DNA of 64,000 bases. Source: an uncultured virus (IMG/VR IMGVR_UViG_3300032117_000007) (taxonomy: Duplodnaviria > Heunggongvirae > Uroviricota > Caudoviricetes). Positions within the stretch are counted from its first letter, which is position 1, and the number at the start of each line of letters is the position of its first letter. A model generated the notes under the pieces. That model worked only from the letters and a program-made list of their open reading frames with translations. It made no database searches and had not been told where the DNA came from. The stretch lies in IMG/VR virus record IMGVR_UViG_3300032117_000007, one strand, 5' to 3'. Below, in pieces: positions 7,615 to 29,253 of this stretch. The translations under genes and the position numbers were made by a program.

Positions 7615-8028
7615 ATGTTATATGTGACTGATAAGGTAACCCCATGGGGTTGGCACTGTATTATGGATGCTGCAGGCTGTAATCACAATTCAATTACAGA
7701 TTATGATAATATCTATAATTTTGCAAAGGAACTGGTCAAGGAAATTGACATGGTTCCATATGGTGAACCACAGATTGTAAAGTTTGGATCAGGAGATAAG
7801 TCTGGATATACTCTAGTTCAACTTATCGAAACTTCAAACATTTGCGCTCATTTTGTGGATGAAAATGATGAAGTCTATCTAGATGTATTCTCATGCAAGC
7901 CATATGATGTAAGAATTGTTGAAAATATGATGGTCAAGTATTTTAATGCTAAGACAATTCGGACTGGTTTTATTGAACGAAAAGCAATATTGCAAACACC
8001 ACCAGCTCATGAAAGTGGAGCTGAATGA
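7615..8028 (+). CDS. speD: Pyruvoyl-dependent S-adenosylmethionine decarboxylase (SpeD-like), copy 1
   Basis: WGWHxxxD, GYTLVQLIETSNICAHF, YLDVFSCKPY. Confidence 0.85.
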   Translation: MLYVTDKVTPWGWHCIMDAAGCNHNSITDYDNIYNFAKELVKEIDMVPYGEPQIVKFGSGDKSGYTLVQLIETSNICAHFVDENDEVYLDVFSCKPYDVRIVENMMVKYFNAKTIRTGFIERKAILQTPPAHESGAE

Positions 8029-16853: not shown

Positions 16854-16872
16854 AGAAAAAGAAGGATTGTTT

Positions 16873-17316
16873 ATGGAAAAATTTAAAAAATTTTCTGATT
16901 TTATAAAACCTGAAGAATTAGATGATGCTCCAAGAAAACCTAATCGCAAGTTACATTGGGGGTATCATCTTCTTTTGGATATGAGTCTGTGTAATAAAAA
17001 CATAGACAATGAAAATGTTGTTCGAGCATTCTTAAAAGAGCTTATTAGAGAATTAAAGATGACACCAATTGGTGATCCTTTAATAGCAAAAGTTGATGGT
17101 GAAGATGGTCGAGGTCTTTCGGCAATACAACTTATTACCACCTCTTCTATCACGTTTCACGGTGATGATGAAAAAATGTCAGTATATCTAGACATTTTTT
17201 CTTGTAAATCTTATGATCCTAAACAAGCTATGCAAACAGTGATTAAATATTTCAATCCTAAGCATATAGGCCATAAATTCATCACAAGAGATGCAGGAGA
17301 TTATCCCAAAAAATGA
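16873..17316 (+). CDS. Pyruvoyl-dependent decarboxylase (SpeD-like), copy 2
   Basis: WGYHLLLD, GLSAIQLITTSSITFH, YLDIFSCKSY; ATG at 16873 after AAGGA. Confidence 0.8.
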   Translation: MEKFKKFSDFIKPEELDDAPRKPNRKLHWGYHLLLDMSLCNKNIDNENVVRAFLKELIRELKMTPIGDPLIAKVDGEDGRGLSAIQLITTSSITFHGDDEKMSVYLDIFSCKSYDPKQAMQTVIKYFNPKHIGHKFITRDAGDYPKK

Positions 17317-18161
17317 TTAAAAAAACACCTTCGGAATTGTCCGAATCAGCTTTTTTAATGAATTTTCCTTTTACAGTGGATAACAGAGAACCAAATAATG
17401 TTCTCATGAATAAATTTTCAGAAAAATATAATTACGAAAGAGCATTTTCTCAATTTATGTCTCTTTATAAAATTGTGACTGCCAACGCCCTCGTGTATAT
17501 ACTCCCCAGTGAAAAAGATCTTCAAGATTTATTCTACGTTGCTAATCTTGGATGTTACCTCCCTCATTTAAATAATAATACTATACTCTTAGCAAATTTT
17601 CAATCTCCACCAAGAATCGGTGAAGATTATGTTGGTCAAAAATTCTTTGAAAGTATGCGTTATAATGTATATCAGTCACCGTATTATTGGGAAGGTGAGG
17701 CAGATTTAAAATATATCAGAGATAACATCTATGTTTCTTGTTATGGCGCTAGAACTGTTAAGGAAAGTCATGCATGGATGGAAAATAATTTCAATATGCA
17801 TATAATTGATATTGAAACACCTGATCCTAATCTTTATCATCTTGATTGTTCTTTTTTCCCTCTCAATGAAACTCAAGCTTTGGTTGTTACTTCTTCTCTT
17901 TCTAAGAAAGACATCAAAAAACTAGAAAAGGTACTGGAAGTTATTCCAGTACCCGAAAAGCACAAATATGATGATTGGACAAATATAGTAAGAATTAAAA
18001 ATAAGATCTTATATTCACCAGTAAATGATAGTCATAAAGAATTAGAAAAAACATTGGGAAAGCTTAATTTAGAAGTAGTTCCCGTGGATATGAGCGAATT
18101 TGCAAAGTCTGGTGCTGCTTTGAGTTGTATGATGATGCATTTAAATTATAATAATAGATAG
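17313..18161 (+). CDS. Amidinotransferase / arginine deiminase / DDAH (pentein) superfamily protein
   Basis: WEGEAD, YHLDC and C-terminal EFxKSGAALSC catalytic Cys. Confidence 0.85.
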   Translation: MIKKTPSELSESAFLMNFPFTVDNREPNNVLMNKFSEKYNYERAFSQFMSLYKIVTANALVYILPSEKDLQDLFYVANLGCYLPHLNNNTILLANFQSPPRIGEDYVGQKFFESMRYNVYQSPYYWEGEADLKYIRDNIYVSCYGARTVKESHAWMENNFNMHIIDIETPDPNLYHLDCSFFPLNETQALVVTSSLSKKDIKKLEKVLEVIPVPEKHKYDDWTNIVRIKNKILYSPVNDSHKELEKTLGKLNLEVVPVDMSEFAKSGAALSCMMMHLNYNNR

Positions 18162-18169
18162 TATCATTA

Positions 18170-18277
18170 TCACCATTTATACCATTCTTCTAGATCAACA
18201 TTTAGATCGTCTTTTACATCAGCTATAATTTGTGTTAAACACTTGCCTTTAACACCATTAATTTTATGGACTACCAT
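18170..18277 (-). CDS. Degenerate terminal QV-array unit, 35 aa (MVVHKING...EEWYKW)
   Basis: Starts in the ATGGTAG junction and ends in TGGTGA. Confidence 0.5.
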   Translation of the reverse strand: MVVHKINGVKGKCLTQIIADVKDDLNVDLEEWYKW

Positions 18278-18453
18278 CTCAGTTCCTCTAGGGTTTGAAA
18301 AAAGATTTGATTCTCGATACGGTGTCTGATCCGATCCCAGATTTGATTATGAACCTGACCTCTGATCTGACCATTGACTTGTTCCTTTATCAGACATCCG
18401 ACTTGATATTCAAATCTACTTCGGGCGTAATGCCATATCTTATTCTTCACCAT
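18271..18453 (-). CDS. QV-array mini-protein (diverged), 60 aa
   Basis: MVKNKI...QVxx...EELRW. Confidence 0.65.
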   Translation of the reverse strand: MVKNKIWHYARSRFEYQVGCLIKEQVNGQIRGQVHNQIWDRIRHRIENQIFFQTLEELRW

Positions 18454-18650
18454 CTCAGATCATCCTTGACCTGATCCCAGACCTGATCTTTGACCTGATA
18501 CCAGACCTGATCTTTGACCTGATACCAGACCTGATACCCAACCTGATACCAGACCTGATCTTTGACCTGATACCAGACCTGATACCCAACCTGACAATAG
18601 ACCTGATCCCAGACCTGATACCTGATTTTACCAATCTTATTCTTCACCAT
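18447..18650 (-). CDS. QV-repeat mini-protein, 67 aa
   Basis: MVKNKI-(QVWD/QVWY/QVKD/QVGY)n-DDLRW. Confidence 0.7.
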   Translation of the reverse strand: MVKNKIGKIRYQVWDQVYCQVGYQVWYQVKDQVWYQVGYQVWYQVKDQVWYQVKDQVWDQVKDDLRW

Positions 18651-18895
18651 CTCAGATCATCCTTGACCTGATCCCAGACCTGATCTTTGACCTGATACCA
18701 GACCTGATCTTTGACCTGATCTTTGACCTGATACCAGACCTGTCGGATGACCTGATCCCTGACCTGATTATAGACCTGATCCCAGACCTGATTCCTGACC
18801 TGATACCAGACCTGATTCCTGACCTGATTATAGACCTGATTCCTGACCTGATCCCTGACCTGATTATAGACTTTATCAATACTTTGCCTTACCAT
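18644..18895 (-). CDS. QV-repeat mini-protein, 83 aa
   Basis: MVRQSIDK-(QVxx)n-DDLRW. Confidence 0.7.
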   Translation of the reverse strand: MVRQSIDKVYNQVRDQVRNQVYNQVRNQVWYQVRNQVWDQVYNQVRDQVIRQVWYQVKDQVKDQVWYQVKDQVWDQVKDDLRW

Positions 18896-19020
18896 TTCAA
18901 ATCATCCTTGACCTGATCCCAGACCTGATCTTTGACCTGATACCATACTCTAGTCGATACCTGATATCTGACCTGATCTTTGACCTGATACCAGACTTTA
19001 TCAATACTATTCTTCACCAT
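18889..19020 (-). CDS. QV-repeat mini-protein, 43 aa, not in the ORF track
   Basis: MVKNSIDKVWYQVKDQVRYQVSTRVWYQVKDQVWDQVKDDLKW; bridges its neighbours with exact 7-nt overlaps. Confidence 0.7.
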   Translation of the reverse strand: MVKNSIDKVWYQVKDQVRYQVSTRVWYQVKDQVWDQVKDDLKW

Positions 19021-19205
19021 CTCAGATCATCCCAACACTGATCCCTGACCTGATACCCAACCTGAATATAGACCTGAATATGGACCTGATCCCAGGTCTG
19101 ACCCTTGACATGATTCCAGGCCCGACTCCAGACCTGATCGCCGACCTGAATATAGACCTGATCCAAGATCTGACTCCAGGTCTGGTTAATATTTTCTTTT
19201 ACCAT
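19014..19205 (-). CDS. QV-repeat mini-protein, 63 aa
   Basis: MVKENI...DDLRW. Confidence 0.7.
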   Translation of the reverse strand: MVKENINQTWSQILDQVYIQVGDQVWSRAWNHVKGQTWDQVHIQVYIQVGYQVRDQCWDDLRW

Positions 19206-19426
19206 CTCAGATCATCCCTAACTTGATCAAATATTTGATACCTCACCTGTCGTCTGACCTGATACCAGACCTGATTCCAGACCTGATACCAGACCTGATC
19301 CCTGACCTGATTATAGACCTGATCCCAGACCTGATTCCTGACCTGATTATAGTCTTGATTCCTGACCTGAATCAAGACCTGATTATAGACTTTAACCATT
19401 GCTATATCAATACTTTTCCTCACCAT
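19199..19426 (-). CDS. QV-repeat mini-protein, 75 aa
   Basis: MVRKSID...DDLRW. Confidence 0.7.
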   Translation of the reverse strand: MVRKSIDIAMVKVYNQVLIQVRNQDYNQVRNQVWDQVYNQVRDQVWYQVWNQVWYQVRRQVRYQIFDQVRDDLRW

Positions 19427-19635
19427 CTTAGATTATCTTTAATCTGAACCTCAACCTGATTCAAGACGCGATCCCTGACCTGATACCTGACCTGATGCAA
19501 GACCTGATTCAAGACGCGATCCCTGACCTGATACCTGACCGGACCCCAGACCCGATCCCTGACCTGATGCAAGACCTGATACCTGACCGGACCCCAGACC
19601 TGATACCTGACGCTATCAATACTATTCTTCACCAT
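19420..19635 (-). CDS. QV-repeat mini-protein, 71 aa
   Basis: MVKNSIDS...DNLRW. Confidence 0.7.
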   Translation of the reverse strand: MVKNSIDSVRYQVWGPVRYQVLHQVRDRVWGPVRYQVRDRVLNQVLHQVRYQVRDRVLNQVEVQIKDNLRW

Positions 19636-19763
19636 CTTAGATCATCTCCAATTTGATCCCAGCCCCGATCCAAGATCTGATACCAGACCTGATACCTGAC
19701 CTGATACTTGACTTGGTCCCAAATCTGATCTCTGATTGCTTGCTGGATAACATTTTGTCTCAT
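19629..19763 (-). CDS. First QV-array unit, 44 aa (MRQNVIQQ...DDLRW)
   Basis: ATG at 19763 after GAAGG; the longer ORF-track call runs through a terminator. Confidence 0.65.
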   Translation of the reverse strand: MRQNVIQQAIRDQIWDQVKYQVRYQVWYQILDRGWDQIGDDLRW

Positions 19764-19779
19764 ATCAAAAACCTTCAAT

Positions 19780-19803
19780 AAAAAACCGGGGATTTCTCCC
19801 CGG
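19780..19803 (-). terminator. Rho-independent terminator
   Basis: CCGGGGA-GAAA-TCCCCGG stem-loop followed by TTTTTT on the minus strand. Confidence 0.85.
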
Positions 19804-19813
19804 CTCTTCAATG

Positions 19814-20164
19814 TTAGTCGGCAGCCTTTCGCCATCCCTCTGGCGTATATTCTCGCTGTCGCCGAATACGGTAAATGCCAGGATCAACCATAATTGACTC
19901 GTGGGTGTGATAACTCCGCAGATGTTCAATCGGAGTAGGTGCTTCCACATTCAAGAACAATTCGTAGATATCCTGACCACTATCAACCTCAAGTTCATAT
20001 GCCTTGACTCGAGAAGCTTCCATCACGTGATTGTGACCCGTCTCAGAGTGAGCAACCACAATCTGGCCTTGCTCAGGAGCCACAGCCTTGATATTAGTAG
20101 GCAATTCTGCAATCTTAATGATAACAAAATCACCCTGGGCAGCCATCTTAGTAAAAGTACGCAT
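19814..20164 (-). CDS. Small His-motif protein, probable partner of DUF6745
   Basis: QGDF...AHSETGHNH...HLRSYHTH...PGIYRIRRQREYTP...AD. Confidence 0.7.
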   Translation of the reverse strand: MRTFTKMAAQGDFVIIKIAELPTNIKAVAPEQGQIVVAHSETGHNHVMEASRVKAYELEVDSGQDIYELFLNVEAPTPIEHLRSYHTHESIMVDPGIYRIRRQREYTPEGWRKAAD

Positions 20165-20197
20165 TTTGTAATCCTTTCAATATTGGTTTATAGTCTC

Positions 20198-20225
20198 ATT
20201 ATAACACATTAGGAAAATTTGTCAA
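20198..20225 (-). promoter_or_regulatory. Strong sigma70-type early promoter
   Basis: TTGACA-16 bp-TATAAT with extended -10 TG. Confidence 0.75.
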
Positions 20226-20784
20226 CAATTATTTTCCTAATCTTTTCCTTGTCGTATTTAATAAATGGTGTGTATTTCTTAAACTTAAGAGAGAATGTTT
20301 CCCATATTGGATTGTCCTTGAGCATCTTATTCCAATATTTCATACATCCTGTTAAATCAGAAAGAACACATATAGTTTCTAAGGAGATTTGTTTACCCAA
20401 ATACAAATTAAAAATATATGGTGGTTGATTATCAATTACAGCAAAATTCGAATTAAAATCATCATTAAATTTTGATAAGTCATTTGTTATAAGATATGTA
20501 AGTGATTGAGTTTTTTTGATCCATTCACTATATATGGTTTCAGCTTCCTCGGAGTATACTATATCTTTAACCCATGCAGTATCTTTTTCTACAAAATTTG
20601 AAAGCATCAAATCGTGTGGATCTTTATGTTTTGATAACTTTTCAAAGAAAATTTTATCTTTTCTTTTATTAAAACTATCCAATGAAGCAGATGATTTACC
20701 AGAATATCTGTGATAATCATAAGTTTTGCTTTGAAAATGATTCTTCAAAGCAAGATAGTCTTTATAGCATTCAAACGGTGTCAT
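20209..20784 (-). CDS. 59: Helicase loader gp59
   Basis: YLALKNHF..YDY..Y.GK...F.KRKDK.FFEKL; ISLET; follows gp33. Confidence 0.88.
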   Translation of the reverse strand: MTPFECYKDYLALKNHFQSKTYDYHRYSGKSSASLDSFNKRKDKIFFEKLSKHKDPHDLMLSNFVEKDTAWVKDIVYSEEAETIYSEWIKKTQSLTYLITNDLSKFNDDFNSNFAVIDNQPPYIFNLYLGKQISLETICVLSDLTGCMKYWNKMLKDNPIWETFSLKFKKYTPFIKYDKEKIRKIIVDKFS

Positions 20785-21011
20785 ATAGGTAGCTGTGCGG
20801 TCTTCTTAAGAATATTTAAAGATTCTGCTTCTGCTTGTATCTTTAATTTAATAATAGAATCCTTCTTAATAAGAGCAGCAGCATATTCAACATCGAGTTC
20901 ATGGTTCTCACACCAATGTACTACAGCATCAATGTAATCCATTTTCTTCTCAAGCCGAATGGATTCTATATCAGATATGAATGTGGTATTATGTTCTAAA
21001 ACTGGCATCAA
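20781..21011 (-). CDS. 33: Late-transcription coactivator gp33
   Basis: YIDAVVHWCE...IKLKIQAEAExLN...LPI. Confidence 0.88.
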   Translation of the reverse strand: MMPVLEHNTTFISDIESIRLEKKMDYIDAVVHWCENHELDVEYAAALIKKDSIIKLKIQAEAESLNILKKTAQLPI

Positions 21012-21016
21012 ATCTC

Positions 21017-22156
21017 CTATATTGCTTTAAGTAGAATGGTATCTTCATTGATCCGCTTTTGTAGCGCACCAACATTCAATTCCTTCATGAGTTTGTCTAG
21101 AACCCTTTTACCACCATTTTGTAATTTTGTCAATAGGTCATCGGCCTTTCTACCGAATCGGAACGTTTTACTTTTGTTCTCATCATATTTCGTGATGGTT
21201 ACTCCCTTAACGTCCAATCCTCCGCGGTCTAGTGCATAGAATACGGTAGCCGTTTTATATCTGGTATTAAAGAGCCAGAATTCCTGAGCACCAACCAATT
21301 TCTCTGGAGCAATAGAAACCAATTTAAATTCCTTGCTTTCCTTAAGATACTTTACATTCTTAAGTTTTTTATCCAAAGAAACTGGTCGGGGCTTTCGTAT
21401 CTGAACATTCTTCTTTTTAGTATTTGAAGAATATTTTTCTGCATCAGATACAACGGAAGTGTAGAATGTCGACCGTTCCTTATGTTGTTCTTTCGTGTAT
21501 GAATAACCTTCTGCAAGAGATGCAGGACAACCCTTAGATGCAAGGATTACTGCCTCATCTGCAATAGGTTTATAATATTCTGCGACTCTGAGTGCCAAAT
21601 TAGGCGGCAATTCATGTTTCTGCAGAGTTTCATACATTGATACAGACCAACCAGATGTGTCGATCATTTTCTCAAACATAGCAATAAAATCAGAAACACG
21701 ATCAGTAATACGATCCTGAATTGAAGGTTTTTCTTTTACTTCTTCTGATTTAAGTTCTTCTTTATCTTTGAGATGCTTATAACTTTCCTTGATATACCTA
21801 TCAAGTTGTTCATAACGAACTTCAGGGAGCTTGGCGCCACGTGTAATCATCCTGGCAATCCAACCAGCATTTACAGGGAACCAAGTATCCGAGACGTTTT
21901 TCATTTTCTTGGCATCTTCAGTACGATTTACGTTCCGAAGATATGCATCCAGATACTTACGAGCATCATCCCTAGTACACATATAGTGATACCAGTTCTG
22001 TGCTCTGCCATAAGCAATATCATCAAGAAAAGAAGTGGATTGGAATAATGGCTCATCGCCCATGTACTTAGAATTGATGAGTTGTGTTTCAGTAAAGGTT
22101 AACTTTACTTTTTTCATCTTCTTTGCAGCAAGACTAGGTACTGGACGACGAGCCAT
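21017..22156 (-). CDS. Conserved T4-like hypothetical protein
   Basis: 379 aa; LVSIxPxKLVGAxExWLFNTRYK...RINEDTILLK. Confidence 0.7.
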   Translation of the reverse strand: MARRPVPSLAAKKMKKVKLTFTETQLINSKYMGDEPLFQSTSFLDDIAYGRAQNWYHYMCTRDDARKYLDAYLRNVNRTEDAKKMKNVSDTWFPVNAGWIARMITRGAKLPEVRYEQLDRYIKESYKHLKDKEELKSEEVKEKPSIQDRITDRVSDFIAMFEKMIDTSGWSVSMYETLQKHELPPNLALRVAEYYKPIADEAVILASKGCPASLAEGYSYTKEQHKERSTFYTSVVSDAEKYSSNTKKKNVQIRKPRPVSLDKKLKNVKYLKESKEFKLVSIAPEKLVGAQEFWLFNTRYKTATVFYALDRGGLDVKGVTITKYDENKSKTFRFGRKADDLLTKLQNGGKRVLDKLMKELNVGALQKRINEDTILLKAI

Positions 22157-22215
22157 GATATATCCTCTATCAGCGTATATTGTATATTATATCAAATAAA
22201 AGGAAATGTCAAGGG

Positions 22216-22449
22216 TTAATTTAGGTTTACAATGCTATCTTTCAAATTTTCTTCATCAACAAGCTCAAGATGACGATTATTTGTATTTAAAACATATCCG
22301 ATAGCAGTAAGAAGTTGCTCGAATTTCTCCAGATGAACATCGTACGTATCTTCATCTGAAGCAAAATATGTATGAGAATAATTCTCAAGCATATGCTGCT
22401 CCTTATCGTCAAGACGTTCAAATGATAGAGTCACTCTGATATTGTTCAT
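22216..22449 (-). CDS. Hypothetical protein
   Basis: 77-aa ORF with AAAGGAA RBS. Confidence 0.55.
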   Translation of the reverse strand: MNNIRVTLSFERLDDKEQHMLENYSHTYFASDEDTYDVHLEKFEQLLTAIGYVLNTNNRHLELVDEENLKDSIVNLN

Positions 22450-22469
22450 TTTAATTCCTTTCTATTAAA

Positions 22470-23429
22470 TTAGGCGGCTTCTGCCATTTCAATGGCAGTT
22501 TCAAGGGCATGGGTTTTCAGGTTCCGATTAGAACCATACCATGCCGATTGCAGACGGTTTTCCTGACTCCGACCGGCAAGATGATCGGTGTAATACGTAG
22601 TGGCATTAAATAGCTGCCAAAAGGTACCACGAGCATATTCTGCACCAGGCTGAGTATCGACAATTTCAAGAACTGTCTTAGCGGGCTTGGACAATTCCTT
22701 CTTGGAATCCGTCTTAGATGTAGCAACCGGGAACACACGCTTGAAGTATTCAACCATGTTCTCGTTTGTGTAACGCTTTTGACCCAAGAATTGAGCCATT
22801 TCCTTATACTTGGCAAGCTTGTCGGCGGCAACACCGAGCATTAGCTTGACAGAGTCGCCGTTGAATTCACGACGATGCGAAAACTTGACCATCCGCTCAA
22901 CCTTGGTATTCAAGGAAAGTGTCAGGGTATTGTTACACACCACACGGATCGGGGTAAACCGAACGTCGGTAGAAAAGCCATATTTGTGGAAATTCGAGAA
23001 GTGAAGATACGATTCCACTTCATCACCCTTGAAAAGGGAAAAGCCGTCCTTGACCTTTGCAAGCGCCCAGACAATTTGGCCATCCTTCAGCGACCCTGCC
23101 GTGTGCATTTCCATGTCACCTTCGGCAATAAAGTCGTTGAAGAATTCAAATGCTTCCGAATTTTGAACGGGATTCCAGTCATCAGAAACAATGTCAAGAA
23201 TTGTATTATCAGAGGTGCGTACCAGAGCAGACCGACCGACGGAAACGTCCTTACCGCCGACGTTAGCAAAGGCCGGGATCTTCTCGACCTTCCAATTTAG
23301 GTCTGCTGCCTCGAGCATCTGCTCGGGGGTCAGGTCATCGGGGACGCAAGTGCCCAGACCATGCCAAGGTGTAGGTCCAGCATAAGCCATAGAGGCCTTG
23401 CCATTCTTAATTTCAAGTTCGTGTGCCAT
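22470..23429 (-). CDS. DUF932 / phage-plasmid TIGR03299-like protein
   Basis: MAHELE, PWHGLG, ADLNWKV, PVQN, TAGSL, TPIRVVCNNTL, GTxWQxFNAxT. Confidence 0.85.
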   Translation of the reverse strand: MAHELEIKNGKASMAYAGPTPWHGLGTCVPDDLTPEQMLEAADLNWKVEKIPAFANVGGKDVSVGRSALVRTSDNTILDIVSDDWNPVQNSEAFEFFNDFIAEGDMEMHTAGSLKDGQIVWALAKVKDGFSLFKGDEVESYLHFSNFHKYGFSTDVRFTPIRVVCNNTLTLSLNTKVERMVKFSHRREFNGDSVKLMLGVAADKLAKYKEMAQFLGQKRYTNENMVEYFKRVFPVATSKTDSKKELSKPAKTVLEIVDTQPGAEYARGTFWQLFNATTYYTDHLAGRSQENRLQSAWYGSNRNLKTHALETAIEMAEAA

Positions 23430-23464
23430 TTTAACCCTTCACTGTAGTTGTTAATTACAAAACA

Positions 23465-23493
23465 AATATATCATATAAAATAAAATAAGTCAA
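23465..23493 (-). promoter_or_regulatory. Sigma70-type early promoter
   Basis: TTGACT-17 bp-TATATT with TG extension, upstream of the DUF932 gene. Confidence 0.65.
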
Positions 23494-23714
23494 TCGTTTT
23501 TTAATTATTTCATCAAACCCCATGTAACTTTTTTAATGTCAAAAAAATGAACTCATTAACTAGGTCATCATGCATTTTTTGCGCTACTGACTTCTTAAGA
23601 TTTGTGCGCCGAGCAACACGGCCGTCATTAAGTACAATTTCAACGTAGTACATCATTAAGAACCTCTCAACATCATAGTTGGATCTTAACCTATTTTTAA
23701 AAATAAGTCAACCC

Positions 23715-23951
23715 CTATTTTTTGGCCAGCCATTCGGGCATAGTGATCCGGGCCCGTCGGACGGCGATCGGCCCGAGAGGGCGACCTTTCCGATCCTTAC
23801 CGCCAGGTACCAGGTACTCGTCGGAGATATACTCCACCGAGCAGAGGCTTTTGGGGCGATATTCACCGCCCAGGATACACCACCCCTTGGCAGTTTCATT
23901 GCCTGGGACAAGGAGGGTCTCGAAGGTAACCAATTGTCGCTTCATCATCAT
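23715..23951 (-). CDS. Hypothetical early protein (MMMKRQL...ITMPEWLAKK)
   Basis: Starts inside the left 55-bp inverted repeat, just after its promoter; GC-rich coding. Confidence 0.6.
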   Translation of the reverse strand: MMMKRQLVTFETLLVPGNETAKGWCILGGEYRPKSLCSVEYISDEYLVPGGKDRKGRPLGPIAVRRARITMPEWLAKK

Positions 23952-23988
23952 ATATGCATCTTATACCAATTAAAGAAAAAAGTCAAAC
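23934..23988 (-). repeat. 55-bp perfect inverted repeat, left copy (promoter plus start codons)
   Basis: Reverse complement is identical to 24379-24433; contains TTGACT-17-TATAAG and ATGATGATGAAGCGACAA. Confidence 0.92.
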
Positions 23989-23994
23989 TAATCA

Positions 23995-24372
23995 TATCAA
24001 TACGTTAGTGCTAACCCATTGATTTTATTAAGAAAATATTTTCAACTTTTTTAAAAAAAATATTTCCCAATTATATCAACACGTTATGTGAGAGACGATG
24101 CTAGAGGTTTCTAGGCTGTATAAACCCACACTTAGCATGCTTAGTATCGTTAGAATTGGGCACTTCCGGCTAACGTATTGATTCTATTAGTATTCTCTGG
24201 CTTCGACCTATAGCCTAACGTATTGATATGATTGGAGAATTTTGAGAAATTCCCAGGAACGTCGACGAGGTCGAGGTGCTAACCTATTGATTCTATTAGA
24301 ACGAAAAAAGGTTTAAAAAATTTACTTTTTTATTCCCATTCATATCAATACGTTAGTGCTAACCCATTGATT
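23995..24372. promoter_or_regulatory. Cluster of eight IHF-consensus sites (WATCAANNNNTTR)
   Basis: Plus strand at 23995, 24074 and 24343; minus strand at about 24012, 24171, 24216, 24280 and 24360; non-coding with A/T tracts. Confidence 0.65.
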
Positions 24373-24378
24373 TCCTTG

Positions 24379-24433
24379 GTTTGACTTTTTTCTTTAATTG
24401 GTATAAGATGCATATATGATGATGAAGCGACAA
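24379..24433 (+). repeat. 55-bp perfect inverted repeat, right copy
   Basis: GTTTGACTTTTTTCTTTAATTGGTATAAGATGCATATATGATGATGAAGCGACAA. Confidence 0.92.
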
Positions 24434-24571
24434 ATGTTTGACCTGGTTTTCTTTACCTGCCGCGATGCCCTCCTGGGCGCCGCCCTCTCGGCCGCGGTGT
24501 TCTGCGCCGCTTTGCGCTACGGTGGGGCTAACGCCCTGCCCATCTTCTTCGAACTTTTGTTTAAAAACTGA
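24416..24571 (+). CDS. Small hydrophobic early protein, 51 aa (MMMKRQMFDLVFF...), not in the ORF track
   Basis: Starts in the right inverted repeat; possible TM segment ALLGAALSAAVFCAAL. Confidence 0.55.
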   Translation: MMMKRQMFDLVFFTCRDALLGAALSAAVFCAALRYGGANALPIFFELLFKN

Positions 24572-24640
24572 CCGGTATGGGGTTGACTTATTTCTCGGAA
24601 TAAGTTAAGATGCATATATGATGGTTTGAAAGGGTTTCTA

Positions 24641-25513
24641 ATGCCTCGTGGCGTTCCTAAGTCTGGTTTTCGTAATACCAAGAATAACATTGCTCGGATG
24701 ATGACCGTGCGATCTGACGTTCCGGCCGAACCGCTGGTCGTCGAGTCTGACTCTGATATTGAGGTCAAGCTGCAAGAACGGTTTGACGTCCTTTCGATGA
24801 TGACGGATGCCGCCATCGCCGGTGACGTTCGTGCCCTGGTTGTGTCTGGTCCGGCTGGTCTAGGCAAGTCATTCACCGTCGAAAAGGCGCTCGAGCTGCA
24901 TGATCCGTCTGAGGCTAATCATCGGATCGTGAAGGGTTACGTTCGGGCCCCTGGCTTGTTCAAACTGCTGTATCAGCACCGTCAGGCAGGCAAAGTGCTT
25001 GTGTTCGATGATGCTGACGCCATTTGGTTCGATGACGTCTCGATTAATCTGCTCAAGGCCGTGTGTGACAGCAACGACAAACGTATCGTATCATACATCA
25101 CCGAAGGTGCTTTGGTCGACGAAGAGTCTGCCGAACTTCTGCCCAAGAGCTTTCAGTTCGACGGCACGATCATTTTCATCACGAACCACGATTTCGATGC
25201 AATGATCGACCGCGGTGACAAACGTGCGCCTCATATGCAGGCCATGATGTCTCGCGCGCATTATATCGACCTTGCCATGAAAACCACACGCGATTACCTG
25301 ATCCGTATTCGTCAAGTCGTGCGCGATGGTCTCCTCGAGAATATCGGTCTGGATAAAACTGGTCAGTCTGATGTTCTTGCATACGTCGAGGATAATCACA
25401 ACAAATTGCGTGAACTTTCTCTCCGTATGGTTCTTAAAATTGGTAAGATCCGTAAGACAAATGCGACCAATTGGCGTAAAATTGTCAAGATCACCTGCAC
25501 GAAGGGGGTTTAA
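24641..25513 (+). CDS. P-loop (AAA-like) ATPase
   Basis: Walker A GPAGLGKS, Walker B VLVFDDAD, IIFITN; likely start MPRGVPKSGFR after AAAGGG; own promoter at about 24583. Confidence 0.8.
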   Translation: MPRGVPKSGFRNTKNNIARMMTVRSDVPAEPLVVESDSDIEVKLQERFDVLSMMTDAAIAGDVRALVVSGPAGLGKSFTVEKALELHDPSEANHRIVKGYVRAPGLFKLLYQHRQAGKVLVFDDADAIWFDDVSINLLKAVCDSNDKRIVSYITEGALVDEESAELLPKSFQFDGTIIFITNHDFDAMIDRGDKRAPHMQAMMSRAHYIDLAMKTTRDYLIRIRQVVRDGLLENIGLDKTGQSDVLAYVEDNHNKLRELSLRMVLKIGKIRKTNATNWRKIVKITCTKGV

Positions 25514-25514
25514 T

Positions 25515-25712
25515 ATGAACAAGAATATTTCCGCGATTGTTTCCCATATTATGGGGATTGCTGAGACTACACCAGATGACCGTGAGTCTGTGAAACTTTC
25601 CAGACTTGCAAATCGTCTGATGCATCAGGGTGCGCCATTTGAGGCGCCTCTTACAACTTCAGAAATTGCAGATGTTATGTTTTATCTAAAAGGTTCTTCT
25701 GCTCCGTGCTAG
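25515..25712 (+). CDS. Hypothetical protein, 65 aa
   Basis: ATG right after the ATPase stop, with AAGGGGG RBS. Confidence 0.55.
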   Translation: MNKNISAIVSHIMGIAETTPDDRESVKLSRLANRLMHQGAPFEAPLTTSEIADVMFYLKGSSAPC

Positions 25713-25797
25713 AAAGGTTTGGTAGATACAATGATGGCATTCACTATTACTACTTTCTTAAAGGATAATTGCTTTGACTTTGCTTTTGTGAGGTGTC

Positions 25798-25911
25798 ATG
25801 TTTGTTTCCAAGTATGGGGAAAAGTCAACGAAGGTGTTTTTGATCATAGAACAAGTCATATTTCAATTAATTGAAATATTTGATCAAGTTAGGGATGATC
25901 TGAGATGGTAA
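25798..25911 (+). CDS. First right-array unit, 37 aa (MFVSKYG...DQVRDDLRW)
   Basis: GAGGTG RBS; ends in the conserved junction. Confidence 0.55.
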   Translation: MFVSKYGEKSTKVFLIIEQVIFQLIEIFDQVRDDLRW

Positions 25912-26075
25912 AGAACGAGATTAGGCGTATGAACACAAATCAGGCCTTGGATCAAGTCAATCGTCATGTCTGGCATCCAGTCTGGTATCAGGTCAGATAT
26001 CAGGTCTGGGATCAGGTCTGGTATCAGGTCTGGGATCAGGTCTGGGATCAGGTCGAGGATGATCTAAGATGGTAA
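25905..26075 (+). CDS. QV-repeat mini-protein, 56 aa, not in the ORF track
   Basis: MVKNEIRR...QVWDQVWDQVEDDLRW. Confidence 0.7.
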   Translation: MVKNEIRRMNTNQALDQVNRHVWHPVWYQVRYQVWDQVWYQVWDQVWDQVEDDLRW

Positions 26076-26284
26076 TGAATAGAATTAAGAAAGTTAGGAA
26101 TCAGGTCAGATATCAGGTCTATAATCAGGTCTATAATCAGGTCAGATATCAGGTCTGGGATCAGGTCTGGGATCAGGTCAGATATCAGGTCTATAATCAG
26201 GTCAGGAATCAGGTCTGGGATCAGGTCAGGAATCAGGTCTGGGATCAGGTCAGGTGGCAGTTTGAAAATGATCTAAGATGGTGA
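26069..26284 (+). CDS. QV-repeat mini-protein, 71 aa
   Basis: MVMNRIKK-(QVxx)n-NDLRW. Confidence 0.7.
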   Translation: MVMNRIKKVRNQVRYQVYNQVYNQVRYQVWDQVWDQVRYQVYNQVRNQVWDQVRNQVWDQVRWQFENDLRW

Positions 26285-26292
26285 AAAAACCA

Positions 26293-26321
26293 TTGACAAT
26301 ATCAGCAACCAATGGTATTAT
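26293..26321 (+). promoter_or_regulatory. Sigma70-type promoter for the DUF6745 gene
   Basis: TTGACA-17 bp-TATTAT with TG extension. Confidence 0.75.
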
Positions 26322-26354
26322 GCCTTTATTGAAACACTGTGAAAGGAACTTAAA

Positions 26355-27212
26355 ATGATTACGGAACTTACCAAGGAACAGCAGGATCAGATGCCGATCT
26401 ACCGTGACAAGTGGATTGACATTGGTCTCTCTACTGAGACGATTGATCGTGATGCTGCTGTTGCAGCATTGAATATGGCTTATCAGGCTGCAGATCTTGC
26501 TCCTCCCAAGACGGTTTTGTTTGCGTCTGGTCCCAAGGATATGGTTCGGGTATTTCGTGAGACTTTTCCCAACGCTACTTGGGACGAATTCAATTCCAAT
26601 ATCATCTTCGGTGGTCACGAAGCTGACTGGGCTTCTTACATTGACTACTTCCAGGAAGTTGTTGGTCTTGATCTTAACAAGGCCAATGGTCTGATTGAAC
26701 TTGCCAAGAGTTCGGGTTGGGTCTGGGTTTCACAGGATCTTGCCATTATTATGGATCGTCCTTCTCATATTCGTATGGATGAGAACAATGTTCTTCATGC
26801 AGAGGATCGTCCATCTGTTCTCTATCGCGATGGCTTTGCTGTTTATAGTTGGCATGGTCTTCGTGTTCCTCGTGAATGGATCATGGAAAAGGAAACGCTT
26901 ACTGCTGCAAAGGCTCTGGGTCAAGATAATATCGAGATGCGTCGTGCAGCATGTGAAATTGTTGGATGGAGCAAAATTCTTGAGGATCTAAACTATTCTG
27001 TTGTTGAAAAGGACGAGGACGAACAGATCGGCACTCTCGTTGAGGTTGATTTGCCTGATGCCGGTAAGGAAAAGTTTTTGATGGTCAAGTGCGGGACTGG
27101 TCGTGATTTTGCAATCCCAGTACCTCCTGATATGAAGACTGCTTTAGAAGCCAATGCCTGGACTTTTGGTCTCAATCCGGAAGATCTTCGTGAGCTCGAA
27201 GTTCGTACCTGA
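26355..27212 (+). CDS. DUF6745-like protein
   Basis: STExIDRxAA...GxHEAxW...GWVW...DRP...LHxEDRPxxxYRDGFxVYxWHGxRVP...NIEMRR...TGRxFAIPVPPDxxTAxEAxAWTFG; family recognised from motifs. Confidence 0.75.
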   Translation: MITELTKEQQDQMPIYRDKWIDIGLSTETIDRDAAVAALNMAYQAADLAPPKTVLFASGPKDMVRVFRETFPNATWDEFNSNIIFGGHEADWASYIDYFQEVVGLDLNKANGLIELAKSSGWVWVSQDLAIIMDRPSHIRMDENNVLHAEDRPSVLYRDGFAVYSWHGLRVPREWIMEKETLTAAKALGQDNIEMRRAACEIVGWSKILEDLNYSVVEKDEDEQIGTLVEVDLPDAGKEKFLMVKCGTGRDFAIPVPPDMKTALEANAWTFGLNPEDLRELEVRT

Positions 27213-27375
27213 GACTGTAAAGGATCACATCTTTAAATCATGGGACTGTGGCCTCCTCATAAGTGATAGTGCTTATGAGGAGGTTGCTTCATTGAGAAAT
27301 GATGTGATGATTAAAGTCTATTGGAATTTTAGTTGTGATCTTTTATGGGCAATGATGGATCAGTTGGAATGGTAA
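27190..27375 (+). CDS. Diverged array unit ending DQLEW; start uncertain
   Basis: Ends in an ATGGTAA junction coupled to the next unit. Confidence 0.4.
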   Translation: MSSKFVPETVKDHIFKSWDCGLLISDSAYEEVASLRNDVMIKVYWNFSCDLLWAMMDQLEW

Positions 27376-27536
27376 AGAGTGATATTAACAAAGCCAAATG
27401 GCAAGTCCGGGATAAGCACTGGATTTATACGAATGAACTGATCAGAAATCAGGTTTGGGATCAGGTCAGTGATCAGGTTTGGGATCACATCAGAATTCAT
27501 GTTAGGTATCAGGCCGAGGATGATCTGAAATGGTAA
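27369..27536 (+). CDS. QV-array mini-protein, 55 aa
   Basis: MVKSDINK...QVWDQVSDQVWD...DDLKW. Confidence 0.65.
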   Translation: MVKSDINKAKWQVRDKHWIYTNELIRNQVWDQVSDQVWDHIRIHVRYQAEDDLKW

Positions 27537-27733
27537 AGAAAGATATTGATAGTGTCAGATATCAGATCACCCATCAGGTCAGGTATCATGTCAGGGAACA
27601 GGTCTTGGATCATGTCAGGGAACAGGTCTTGGATCAGGTTGGGCATCAGTTTGGGCATCAGGTTTGGTTTCAGGTTTGGTTTCAGGTCATAGAACCGGTC
27701 TTGATTCAAATCTGGGATGATCTAAGATGGTAA
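27530..27733 (+). CDS. QV-repeat mini-protein, 67 aa
   Basis: MVKKDIDS...DDLRW. Confidence 0.7.
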   Translation: MVKKDIDSVRYQITHQVRYHVREQVLDHVREQVLDQVGHQFGHQVWFQVWFQVIEPVLIQIWDDLRW

Positions 27734-27897
27734 GAAATAAAATTGATCGCACAATACTTCAAATTAATAATACATTTCATGATGAGTTCTCTGATTCCGT
27801 TATGAATAAAATTTGGTGGGATGTTACTGGACAAGACGTATATCAAAATTTGAAATATCTTTTATGGGAGCAAATTAGAATTGATCTAAAATGGTAG
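27727..27897 (+). CDS. Diverged array unit, 56 aa (MVRNKID...IDLKW)
   Basis: Conserved termini and 7-nt overlaps, with no regular repeat. Confidence 0.6.
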   Translation: MVRNKIDRTILQINNTFHDEFSDSVMNKIWWDVTGQDVYQNLKYLLWEQIRIDLKW

Positions 27898-27965
27898 AAA
27901 AAAACTATACTCGTCAAATTTGGAATCCTATTTGGAGTCAAGTTATAGAAGATTTGAGATGGTAA
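27891..27965 (+). CDS. Minimal terminal array unit, 24 aa (MVEKNYTRQIWNPIWSQVIEDLRW)
   Basis: Conserved termini and junction. Confidence 0.5.
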   Translation: MVEKNYTRQIWNPIWSQVIEDLRW

Positions 27966-27972
27966 TTTTTTG

Positions 27973-28003
27973 TTGACAATACCATTTAAATGGTGTATAA
28001 ATA
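27973..28003 (+). promoter_or_regulatory. Composite promoter for tmRNA/gp32
   Basis: TTGACA-17 bp-TATAAA; the -10 box is also an exact TATAAATA late promoter. Confidence 0.7.
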
Positions 28004-28007
28004 TAAA

Positions 28008-28297
28008 TGTTGCTGTTGATTGCAATCAAATAGACTTGCTGAGACGGGAGTGCGACTCTCCCCACCTCCACCATAAGCACACGGTATGTCAGAACACTGG
28101 ATGCAAGTCGTGTGTTTATGATGGGGGTGACTAGGTTCGATCAGCTGTGGTAAGGGTTGAGGTAGGCAATGAGTAAGACACGACTCACAATCAGTTCAAA
28201 AACTATAAATGCCAACGATAATGTTGCATTTGAGGGAACTGCCCTAGCGGCATAACCTCATTGGGTATGGGCTCCACCTAGAAACAGAACGGGCCCA
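28008..28297 (+). ncRNA. ssrA: Circularly permuted (two-piece) tmRNA; outer ends approximate
   Basis: T-arm and CACCTCCACCA acceptor end (28073) lie upstream of the GGGGGTG 5' strand (28123) and give G3.U70; tag reading frame 28211-28255 encodes ANDNVAFEGTALAA. Confidence 0.92.
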
Positions 28298-28341
28298 ATA
28301 TACTAACATACTAAAATATACTAATATATACGAGGTTACAT

Positions 28342-29253
28342 ATGAATTCTTTTTCTGCACTAAAATCTTCTTCTAAGAGTTCCTTGGAGAAGTTGACACA
28401 AGAACTTTCAAAGCTAAATTCTGGTACTGAATCATCTAAGGATACTCGCTTCTGGTATCCCAATGTTGATAAGGCAGGTAATGGATTTGCTATGATCCGA
28501 TTCCTACCTCCTTCTGCTAATGAAGATGTTCCATTCATTCGTATGTTTGAACATGCTTTCAAAGGCCCAACTGGACTTTGGTATTTTGAAAATTCTCTAA
28601 CTACTATCGGCAAGAATGATCCTGTCGGTGAATTGAATTCCGTTCTTTGGAATCAATCATCTGATGAAAATTCACCTGGTCGTAAGCAGGCACGAGAACA
28701 AAAGCGTAAGCTAAGTTATATCTCAAACATTTATGTTATCCAAGACTCTGCCAATCCAGAGAATAACGGAAAGGTTTTTCTCTTTAAGTATGGCAAGAAA
28801 ATCTTTGATAAGCTAAATGAGGTCATGAATCCTCAGTTTGAAGATGAAAAGCCAATGAATCCTTTTGACTTCTGGGCTGGTGCTACATTCAAGCTCAAGA
28901 TTCGGAATGTTGAAGGGTATCGCAATTATGATAAGTCAGAATTTGCAACACCTGGCCCTCTATTTGATGATGACGATGCTATGGAGAAGGTTTGGAATCA
29001 GCAACATTCTCTGCAAGCATTCCTTGACCCTAGCAACTTCAAGAGTTATGAAGAACTCAAGAAGAAGCTTGATAAGGTTTTGGGACTTGATGATGCATCT
29101 AAGCTTACAAAGGCTCGGACAAAGACACCTGAGCCTGAGGATGATGAACTACCATGGACACCACCTAAGGTTGAACGTGCGGCAGTTCAGTCTTCTACGT
29201 CAGATGATGAAGATGATGACTTAGAATTCTTCAAACGTCTTTCAAAGGACTAA
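28342..29253 (+). CDS. 32: Single-stranded DNA-binding protein gp32
   Basis: DKAGNGFAMIRFLP, HAFKGPxGxWY, FKYGKKIFDK, NPFDFWxGA, YRNYDKSEF; acidic tail. Confidence 0.97.
   Translation: MNSFSALKSSSKSSLEKLTQELSKLNSGTESSKDTRFWYPNVDKAGNGFAMIRFLPPSANEDVPFIRMFEHAFKGPTGLWYFENSLTTIGKNDPVGELNSVLWNQSSDENSPGRKQAREQKRKLSYISNIYVIQDSANPENNGKVFLFKYGKKIFDKLNEVMNPQFEDEKPMNPFDFWAGATFKLKIRNVEGYRNYDKSEFATPGPLFDDDDAMEKVWNQQHSLQAFLDPSNFKSYEELKKKLDKVLGLDDASKLTKARTKTPEPEDDELPWTPPKVERAAVQSSTSDDEDDDLEFFKRLSKD

Follow-up and report, generated by a model that had tools for sequence, protein, structure and literature searches.

We analyse a 64,000-nucleotide (nt) stretch of DNA (IMG/VR record IMGVR_UViG_3300032117_000007; hereafter the window) from an uncultured freshwater T4-like myovirus. 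In this phage the gene of a DUF6745 protein and that of a 116-residue protein, which we call p116, each adjoin chains of small open reading frames (ORFs), or minis, most of which encode four-residue repeats (tetrads) of the form xxQV. We consider it very likely that the architecture is as laid out below and that the tetrad tracts of the minis are homologous to a tract which relatives of the DUF6745 protein carry internally. We also lean slightly towards a fuller reading, in which the three parts form an accessory module whose detached tract docks on the DUF6745 core and which has a role in counter-defence.

The core pair and the internal tract of its relatives

The DUF6745 gene occupies positions 26355-27212 on the plus strand and encodes 285 residues. 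The first-pass annotation of this DNA, made from the letters, had called it DUF6745-like and had seen a short non-repetitive linker where homologues hold a repeat, and both points hold. Residues 83-278 match the hidden Markov model PF20530 (phrog_31813) with an E-value of 4.8e-35 and 121.2 bits (cut-off 27), while residues 60-84 form a 25-residue, non-repetitive linker, PKDMVRVFRETFPNATWDEFNSNII, followed by the motif G86-x-H88-x-A90-x-W92. An internal tetrad tract is absent from this protein, its longest period-4 Q[V/I/L] run being 0; such a tract is frequent in the family and does not define it. In phmmer alignments residues 1-285 pair with full-length homologues and have in common with them the N-terminal region, the G-x-H-x-A-x-W motif and a CGTGR motif, and the near-invariant residues are G86, C246, G247, T248, G249 and R250. 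The AlphaFold2 (AF2) model of the protein is compact and confident (mean predicted local distance difference test score, pLDDT, 95.3; predicted template-modelling score, pTM, 0.85).

A phmmer search against 1.84 billion representatives returns 9151 DUF6745 cluster representatives at E <= 0.001. Of the 150 best of these, 104 are at least 300 residues long and many align in two stretches around an insert; in 30 of the 150 this insert is made of at least four xxQ[V/I/L] tetrads, with a maximum of 42. The tract begins at about residue 73-158 in 29 of the 30 (the remaining one is an N-terminally truncated fragment) and lies between the N-terminal region and G-x-H-x-A-x-W, which is the linker site of the present copy. 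The annotation's statement that many homologues carry an internal QV-type repeat at this place is correct.

The second member of the core, p116 (19814-20164, minus strand), had been singled out earlier as a His-rich gene, and it proves to be real, with an open frame and an invariant His/Glu cluster. Its sole PHROG match is phrog_27831 (E 4e-11). Alignment of 46 sequences gives 21 invariant columns, every one of which is present in this copy (they include A9, Q10, G11, D12, H39, S40, E41, T42, H44, H46, H81, R83, H88, R102, Q103, R104 and E105), and the family motifs QGD, HSETGHxH, H..R, DTH and RQRE are all found in it. The cluster of invariant His, Glu and Asp residues suggests a metal site. 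The AF2 model is all-beta with a pLDDT of 85.7. Zinc-binding beta-sheet DNA-binding folds (AFT2, WRKY, GCM, yippee) appear in structure comparison at Z 2.9-4.2, which is below a meaningful level, and we make no use of them. The ESM Atlas returns unnamed viral clusters only, for p116 and for one mini, and a sequence search of the PDB yields no match for DUF6745 or p116 (best E-values 0.41 and 0.83). p116 may have a role together with the minis.

We compare 80 viral loci with 80 bacterial loci, the latter being the best 80 of 505 confirmed ones. A p116 homologue accompanies DUF6745 in 75 of 80 loci in each set, in keeping with the earlier statement that the two genes are normally neighbours; it lies on the same strand and within 300 nt in 58 viral and 72 bacterial loci, and within 2 kb in a further 14 viral ones. 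Ten loci are without p116, and in 7 of them DUF6745 stands at the edge of its contig. Although same-strand adjacency to DUF6745 is usual for the p116 family, in this phage 6.2 kb lie between the two genes and their strands differ, a layout seen in 3 of the 80 viral loci, 2 of them from this phage's own lineage. In one uncultured phage (L061:7776-8852) the first 76 residues of p116 are joined in frame with DUF6745 in a 359-residue ORF, and in a near-identical locus (L062:7611-8849) the two genes are separate; either a natural deletion or an error of assembly may lie behind the fusion. Bacterial copies in Proteobacteria stand in early regions of prophages, near genes for HNH, Dam, C5 methylase, ERF, YqaJ, RusA, RdgC, integrase and S24 repressor. 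The deposited phages with DUF6745 are Microcystis phages, one Mycobacterium prophage and one uncultured phage, and in all of them the product is entered as 'hypothetical protein'.

How does the internal tract relate to the stand-alone minis? The first-pass annotation had raised the question whether genomes with repeat-less DUF6745 are those with stand-alone arrays. This rule stands on the tract-bearing side, where DUF6745 with an internal QV run of at least 5 is accompanied by minis in 0 of 7 viral loci; on the repeat-less side it holds for 52 of 73 viral loci, with up to 18-19 minis per locus, and fails for the others. A dialect-blind detector of period-4 tracts, which finds an internal tract in 8 of 80 viral and 35 of 80 bacterial loci, gives minis in 0 of 8 tract-bearing versus 48 of 72 repeat-less viral loci (Fisher p 3.6e-4, with kinship ignored). 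The bacterial tracts come in many dialects, among them xxQV, xSQL, SAVx, xxNL, AATx, NATx, SATx and GSGR. The minis of the viral loci are immediate neighbours of DUF6745 or p116 and in many cases stand between the two. A phage-type mini-gene array is found in 0 of the 80 bacterial loci; five of these had been flagged for stand-alone tracts, and we reject them as runs of N, other tract frames, a frameshifted fused gene or other tract-bearing proteins.

A FastTree phylogeny of the DUF6745 domain groups all 39 mini-bearing rows within a single 72-row clade (SH-like support 99), together with 33 repeat-less rows without detected minis and 0 tract-bearing rows; the neighbouring clades are mostly tract-bearing. 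Since the criterion for minis is stricter here than in the count of 52 of 73, mini-bearing rows are undercounted. Minis persist across the clade down to a DUF6745 identity of about 45%. A single detachment at the base of the mini-bearing clade is the simplest candidate reading of this tree. The root is a midpoint root only, and the direction implied by 'split out' depends on where the true root lies.

The mini-gene arrays and their turnover

The window holds 18 chained small ORFs, which fall into three arrays and bear out the claim that each core gene abuts a QV array: nine directly 3' of p116 on the minus strand (array A, 18170-19835), four 5' of DUF6745 (array B, 25798-26358, plus strand) and five 3' of it (array C, 27154-27965, plus strand). 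At least four consecutive period-4 Q[V/I/L] tetrads are present in 11 of the 18, weaker tracts in 2, and the remaining 5 are remnants or chimeras. The earlier figure of about 17 minis is right if remnants are counted and too high for intact units, of which there are 13 recognisable ones beside the 5 remnants.

Array A opens with a unit of 7 tetrads ending in DDLRW-stop (unit 1, 19629-19835), whose longest ORF overlaps the end of p116 and in which a later ATG at 19763 gives a 44-residue mini. It continues on the minus strand with units of 71 residues (unit 2, 19420-19635), 75 residues (unit 3, 19199-19426), 63 residues (unit 4, 19014-19205), 43 residues (unit 5, 18889-19020), 83 residues with 17 tetrads (unit 6, 18644-18895), 67 residues (unit 7, 18447-18650) and 60 residues with a degenerating tract (unit 8, 18271-18453), and closes with a 35-residue terminal remnant without a tract (18170-18277) that has kept the MV start and the W-stop end. 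Array B begins with a 37-residue leader ORF (25798-25911) that is mini-like at its C-terminus DQVRDDLRW only, followed by units of 56 residues (25905-26075) and 71 residues (26069-26284, the mini of the complex model below) and by a 26-residue remnant with an MVKK start and no tract (26278-26358), which holds the DUF6745 promoter and overlaps the DUF6745 ATG. In array C a leader ORF of up to 73 residues without a tract (27154-27375; its start is uncertain) ends in QLEW-stop with an ATGGTAA junction; then come units of 55 residues (27369-27536), 67 residues (27530-27733) and, with a degenerate tract, 56 residues (27727-27897), and finally a 24-residue remnant ending in EDLRW-stop (27891-27965).

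The junctions between these ORFs follow one design. The sequence ATGGT(A/G)(A/G) closes 14 of the 18, and in it the stop overlaps the next (or a trailing) ATG by 7 nt, so that the frame moves by one base at each junction; the recognisable units all return to (xxQV)n in their new frame. The longer junction motif GAT[CT]T[AG]A[GA]ATGGT[AG] occurs 13 times in the window, always within the arrays, and Tandem Repeats Finder (TRF) reports arrays of 12-nt period with scores up to 319. Of 101 distinct pairs of adjacent minis in the viral loci, 90 have an ATG that overlaps the end of the preceding gene, most often with an overlap of -4 (59 pairs); the type in this window is -7, and the terminal motifs vary by lineage (DDLRW, KENLK, EDLENE, KELKK). 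We considered a read-through or frameshift polyprotein and set it aside, as each junction has an ATG after a purine-rich stretch and no evident slippery site.

Within the tetrads, two residues are held constant and two vary. All 113 tetrads of the window have Q. At position 4, V fills 100 of them and I the other 13; the first residue is usually W, R, Y or K and the second usually D, Y or N, with codon 2 reading GAT in 34, TAT in 32 and AAT in 22. The pairs WD, WY, RY, YN, RN and KD make up 69 of the 113. Third codon positions are near-fixed (nt 6 T in 105, nt 9 G in 100, nt 12 C in 94), and variation is found at the first codon position of either variable residue. When one mini is compared with PADLOC, it gives weak low-complexity matches only (E 0.002-0.006).

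Between near-identical phages the arrays differ by whole units, which are gained, lost or exchanged. Over 16.4 kb one record (G001) shows 100% identity with the window, yet it is without unit 7 of array A. In a relative that is 97-98% identical (L003/L005), a piece of array A (19406-19735) is found inverted inside array C, and in L005 it is unit 2 that sits there. Contigs from one DNA run (X16), which differs in study and year from the possible source samples, were placed at 90% likeness and are therefore hints from related strains rather than counts: a joint at 26073->26286 corresponds to the loss of about one unit, and single contigs show opposite-strand joints at 19120/25991 and 19421/27733. 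Arrays A and B have inverted repeats in common, up to 320 nt long at 72-80% identity and 104 nt long at 91%, through which the 6 kb between them could invert. This, we infer, would bring p116, a QV array and DUF6745 onto one strand, in the order that relatives such as L019 and L041-L045 have.

The two core genes also have the strongest promoter-like sites of the region. A sigma-70-type site upstream of p116 (20225->20198, minus strand) reads TTGACA-16-TATAAT with a TG and fits the consensus at 12 of 12 positions, and one upstream of DUF6745 (26293-26321, plus strand) reads TTGACA-17-TATTAT with a TG and fits at 11 of 12, in agreement with the near-consensus promoters that had been noted for both genes. 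The -10 hexamer of the former ends 34 nt 5' of the ATG at 20164, the latter ends 34 nt 5' of the ATG at 26355, and each is then followed by a similar TGAAAGGA stretch. A scan of 10.7 kb gives 41 promoter-like sites against 29.0 expected, among them one 12/12 site and two 11/12 sites, and the p116 and DUF6745 sites rank as the top two. Early genes of T4-type phages carry sigma-70-type promoters, and the three-part module is probably expressed early. Contigs from 3 metatranscriptome libraries cover the core genes, those on DUF6745 lying within 26352-27143 with 0-10 differences each and those on p116 covering 19747-20167 and belonging to a relative with about 92% identity; this would agree with transcription of both genes, though DNA carry-over may also account for it. 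The arrays have no such contig, which is uninformative because contigs break in repeats. The second 11/12 site lies inside array A (19410->19382, minus strand). There the Y-N tetrads read TATAAT and so create -10-like hexamers (19346-19410), which may be either internal promoters or a by-product of coding.

Docking, mechanism and competing explanations

We modelled the complex of DUF6745, supplied with its alignment, and the 71-residue mini of array B (26069-26281), together with three controls. The complex scores 0.73 (runs 0.83, 0.73 and 0.71) and the best control 0.00; in a benchmark of this score, 116 of 157 solved complexes and 2 of 215 mismatched pairs come up to that level of 0.73. Contact agreement between runs is at least 65% and the pLDDT of the partner at least 77. 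On DUF6745 the interface comprises residues 1-25, 42-48, 60-68, 76-110 and 125-170, which are the N-terminal helices and the former insertion site. Reading the list of contacts against the sequence of the mini, we find that Q is in contact in 12 of 13 tetrads and V in 13 of 13, whereas the second variable residue is in contact in 2 of 11. Such contacts would be expected if a constant stripe docks and a variable face stays exposed, and on the strength of the model we regard docking of the minis onto DUF6745 in trans as moderately likely. Three things had been named earlier whose absence would speak against the idea; two of them, repeats in homologues and co-occurrence of the components, are found, and the third, an interaction, is predicted by the model.

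The mechanism that we propose starts from a constant core, DUF6745 and its near-universal neighbour p116. In most of the wider family DUF6745 presents internal tetrads, with two invariant residues (Q and V here) and two variable ones, between the N-terminal helices and G-x-H-x-A-x-W. In the clade of this phage DUF6745 is without the tract, and chains of translationally coupled mini-genes beside it and p116 encode it instead. A mini would then extend over the N-terminal helices and the site of the former insertion, held, according to the model, by its invariant Q/V stripe; most tetrads would keep their second variable residue free, which would allow a single core to display many alternative surfaces. 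The arrays change fast, through gain and loss of whole units at the conserved junction and through exchange between inverted arrays. Variable target recognition in phage-host conflict, that is counter-defence, is the role that we would name first, by analogy with the phage protein Tweety gp54 discussed below, and we put it forward tentatively. A bolder version, to which we give very little credence, takes the tetrads as a modular reading code with two specificity residues per helical turn; minis of 10-17 tetrads would be exchangeable protein 'guides' on defined stretches of linear nucleic-acid or peptide targets for a constant DUF6745-p116 effector, drawn from a restricted set of residue pairs, and the phage would have a whole library of such guides.

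Two other explanations accept the minis or their repeats and dispense with docking. The minis could be independent small proteins, for example helical or fibrous ones, that share the repeat with DUF6745 through recombination and do not act on it. Tetrad tracts do occur in unrelated proteins, namely Tweety gp54 and two prophage ORFs (L084:5074-5916 and L094:1898-2653); the tract is thus a module not tied to one scaffold, and this suggests that several unrelated phage proteins make use of it. The repeat-less loci without nearby minis point the same way. What makes this explanation unlikely in our eyes is the strict exclusion of tract and minis in viral loci (0 of 7 and 0 of 8), the position of the minis next to DUF6745 or p116, and the gap between the complex score and that of the best control. 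Alternatively, the arrays could be selfish repeat DNA that expands and decays after a tract was broken, with the ORFs as by-products. The repeat unit is indeed open in several frames and on both strands, 5 of the 18 chained ORFs are remnants, third codon positions are as uniform as recent expansion would leave them, and units come and go between near-identical phages. Yet every junction shifts the frame by one base and restores the QV frame with an ATG and a stop, the start/stop overlap is kept at 90 of 101 junctions despite lineage-specific terminal motifs, variation is focused on the first codon positions of two residues while Q is fixed and position 4 is V or I, and minis are retained across the clade to the depth given above; we judge selfish repeats to be improbable.

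Two further explanations seem to us highly improbable. Many diverged cassettes, a conserved junction repeat and exchange between arrays would all suit silent cassettes that are copied into an expressed, tract-bearing gene, in the manner of pilS/pilE or vls antigenic variation. An expression site is missing, however, DUF6745 being tract-less here and in all 72 rows of the clade, and each would-be cassette has its own start, stop and upstream purine-rich stretch. The arrays could also act as DNA, as arrays of protein-binding or methylation sites or as recombination hot spots, with coding as a secondary matter. The 1565 nt of array A contain 38 GATC sites, as against 300 in the whole window, the YN units spell the TATAAT hexamers already mentioned, and inverted arrays flank the 6-kb segment. 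The GATC sites, however, stem from the D-Q codon pair and are gone in the SQV, AQV, SQL and AAT dialects, where the peptide pattern is kept.

Several results weigh against the docked three-part module that we favour. The link between tract and minis is one-way: 21 of the 73 repeat-less viral loci have no minis in the available DNA, DUF6745 of Streptomyces has neither tract nor minis, and the module can evidently work without minis nearby. The locus counts include near-duplicates (the tree has 159 rows, of which 143 are different). The minis are known here as ORFs with predicted products, and their uniform third codon positions could reflect recent expansion with gene conversion, or a constraint at the DNA level. 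The complex model, for its part, may replay intramolecular contacts learned from fused homologues. Nor do database comparisons point to a function for the core: fold searches against the PDB reach at best E 0.16 (Foldseek) and Z 4.2 (VIA, residues 204-280 only) for DUF6745, and E 0.28 and Z 4.2 for p116; no NCBIfam model matches either protein; and PADLOC assigns 0 families to DUF6745 and p116, as it does to the neighbouring AAA and DUF932 proteins. Finally, Tweety gp54 has no Pfam family and is non-homologous to DUF6745 (hhalign probability 0.1%), which makes the argument for counter-defence an analogy of tract design alone.

Surroundings and known systems

The module lies among the genes of a T4-like genome. 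The gene for gp59 (20209-20784, minus strand) and that for the late-transcription coactivator gp33 (20781-21011, minus strand) stand beside p116, and gp32 (28342-29253, plus strand) follows array C; elsewhere the window encodes baseplate and tail proteins, ribonucleotide reductase, ThyX, PhoH and transaldolase. G+C content is 0.32-0.37 in the backbone and is raised to 0.40-0.46 at 18-20 kb and 22-28 kb. Megablast of 18000-28300 finds nothing similar at the DNA level among deposited phages; two near-identical IMG/VR contigs exist, and at least 17 lake or freshwater DNA runs contain at least half of the words sampled from the window. Three neighbours often adjoin the module in T4-like relatives and are outside its core: a DUF932/TIGR03299 phage/plasmid-like protein (22470-23429, minus strand; in 25 of 80 viral loci), an AAA ATPase (24626-25513, plus strand; phrog_1250, in 14 of 80) and phrog_11903 (21017-22156, minus strand; in 29 of 80).

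The gap between the DUF932 and AAA genes (23670-24625) looks non-coding and may be an origin or a regulatory region. It contains four copies of a 23-nt iteron-like repeat (GTGCTAACCCATTGATT...), a 128-nt inverted repeat and four promoter-like units TTGACT-17-TAAGAT, two of which face outward into small G+C-rich ORFs (23715-23951, minus strand, and 24416-24571, plus strand) that both begin MMMKRQ. Between array C and gp32 lies a transfer-messenger RNA (tmRNA; 27956-28346, plus strand), which ARAGORN calls as permuted with the tag ANDNVAFEGTALAA; it matches the Rfam models tmRNA_permuted at 107.4 bits and alpha_tmRNA at 79.4 bits. The find points to an alphaproteobacterial host. The window is also rich in auxiliary metabolic genes: beside PhoH, transaldolase and others there are two S-adenosylmethionine-decarboxylase-like genes (phrog_3125; 7615-8025 and 16867-17313, plus strand), and it holds a heptose-phosphate kinase/adenylyltransferase-like gene and a DDAH-like gene (17313-18161).

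Our literature searches returned no paper on the DUF6745 family, the DUF6745/p116 pair, DUF6745 tracts or the detachment of a tract into mini-gene arrays, and by title or abstract nothing relevant on small genes of phages that are hypervariable and translationally coupled; among the papers listed on tetrapeptide repeats in phages, those related to Tweety are the relevant ones. Should the minis indeed dock on DUF6745, the arrangement would be a route to protein diversity for which we found no description: a variable segment would have been moved out and kept as a fast-evolving library of coupled mini-genes, and a two-protein core would wear many surfaces. The family in question is large and occurs widely, in lake phages as well as in prophages from many phyla; there are confident models but no solved-fold match for the two core proteins, and the module offers a natural design of scaffold and variable helix for binder engineering.

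Among known phages, the core pair is present in a cultured one, Microcystis phage Ma-LMM01, as gp175-gp174. In gp175 we read the p116 motifs QGD...GEVTGHKHE...HEEH...QQEY from the translation, and gp174 aligns with our DUF6745 at 25% identity (E 9e-10) and has an insert that is non-repetitive. The fused form is seen in Mycobacterium phage prophiGD102-1, whose gp38 has the same N-terminal region and DUF6745 domain with several dozen xxQL tetrads at the linker site; there the tract is internal, whereas in our phage it is encoded as separate mini-genes. The next gene of that prophage, gp39 (L165:3067-3411), encodes a Cys/His-rich protein of 114 residues that is not p116-like by eye from its translation, and it may be an alternative metal-binding partner.

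Diversity-generating retroelements likewise diversify a few residues of a phage protein. In our phage, however, the diversity is spread over many paralogous units rather than confined to one variable region, and variation is not adenine-specific, given that nt 5 is A in 97 of 113 tetrads while nt 1 and nt 4 vary; a reverse transcriptase is absent from the PHROG matches of the 64 ORFs scanned in the window. Phage proteins with internal tetrapeptide tracts were described in print as early as 2007, in a report on phage Tweety that also likens to its own case the VR2 of bbp36 in Bordetella phage BMP-1, an internal tandem repeat of variable copy number with a 24-bp unit in a non-essential gene (PMC2884959).

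The closest likeness of design is with Tweety gp54 itself. By that report's account of the gene, gp54 and its relatives Che8 gp57 and PMC gp51 are built on a 12-bp unit that encodes tetrads with A-A invariant and two variable residues; third codon positions in the gp54 tract are invariant and first positions vary at two residues, a pattern taken there as selection for variation; and close relatives differ in copy number (48, 26 and 15 tetrads) in a non-essential gene (PMC2884959). The tetrads of our window similarly combine two invariant and two variable residues with near-fixed third codon positions, and their repeat content also differs among close relatives, here by whole units. In gp54 the tract is internal and there are no minis, and no p116 is seen among its neighbours, of which gp55 has no Pfam family and gp56 is DUF732. 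Escape mutants that overcome the Phrann gp29/gp30 defence are described as having an altered number of gp54 tetrads (PMC9262239). Among the tract-bearing phage proteins that we found, gp54 is the only one with a phenotype, and we use it as a likeness of design and not as a sign of membership in the family. Since gp54 ties tracts of such design to counter-defence, the module of DUF6745, p116 and minis becomes a candidate for a new class of anti-defence or host-targeting systems.

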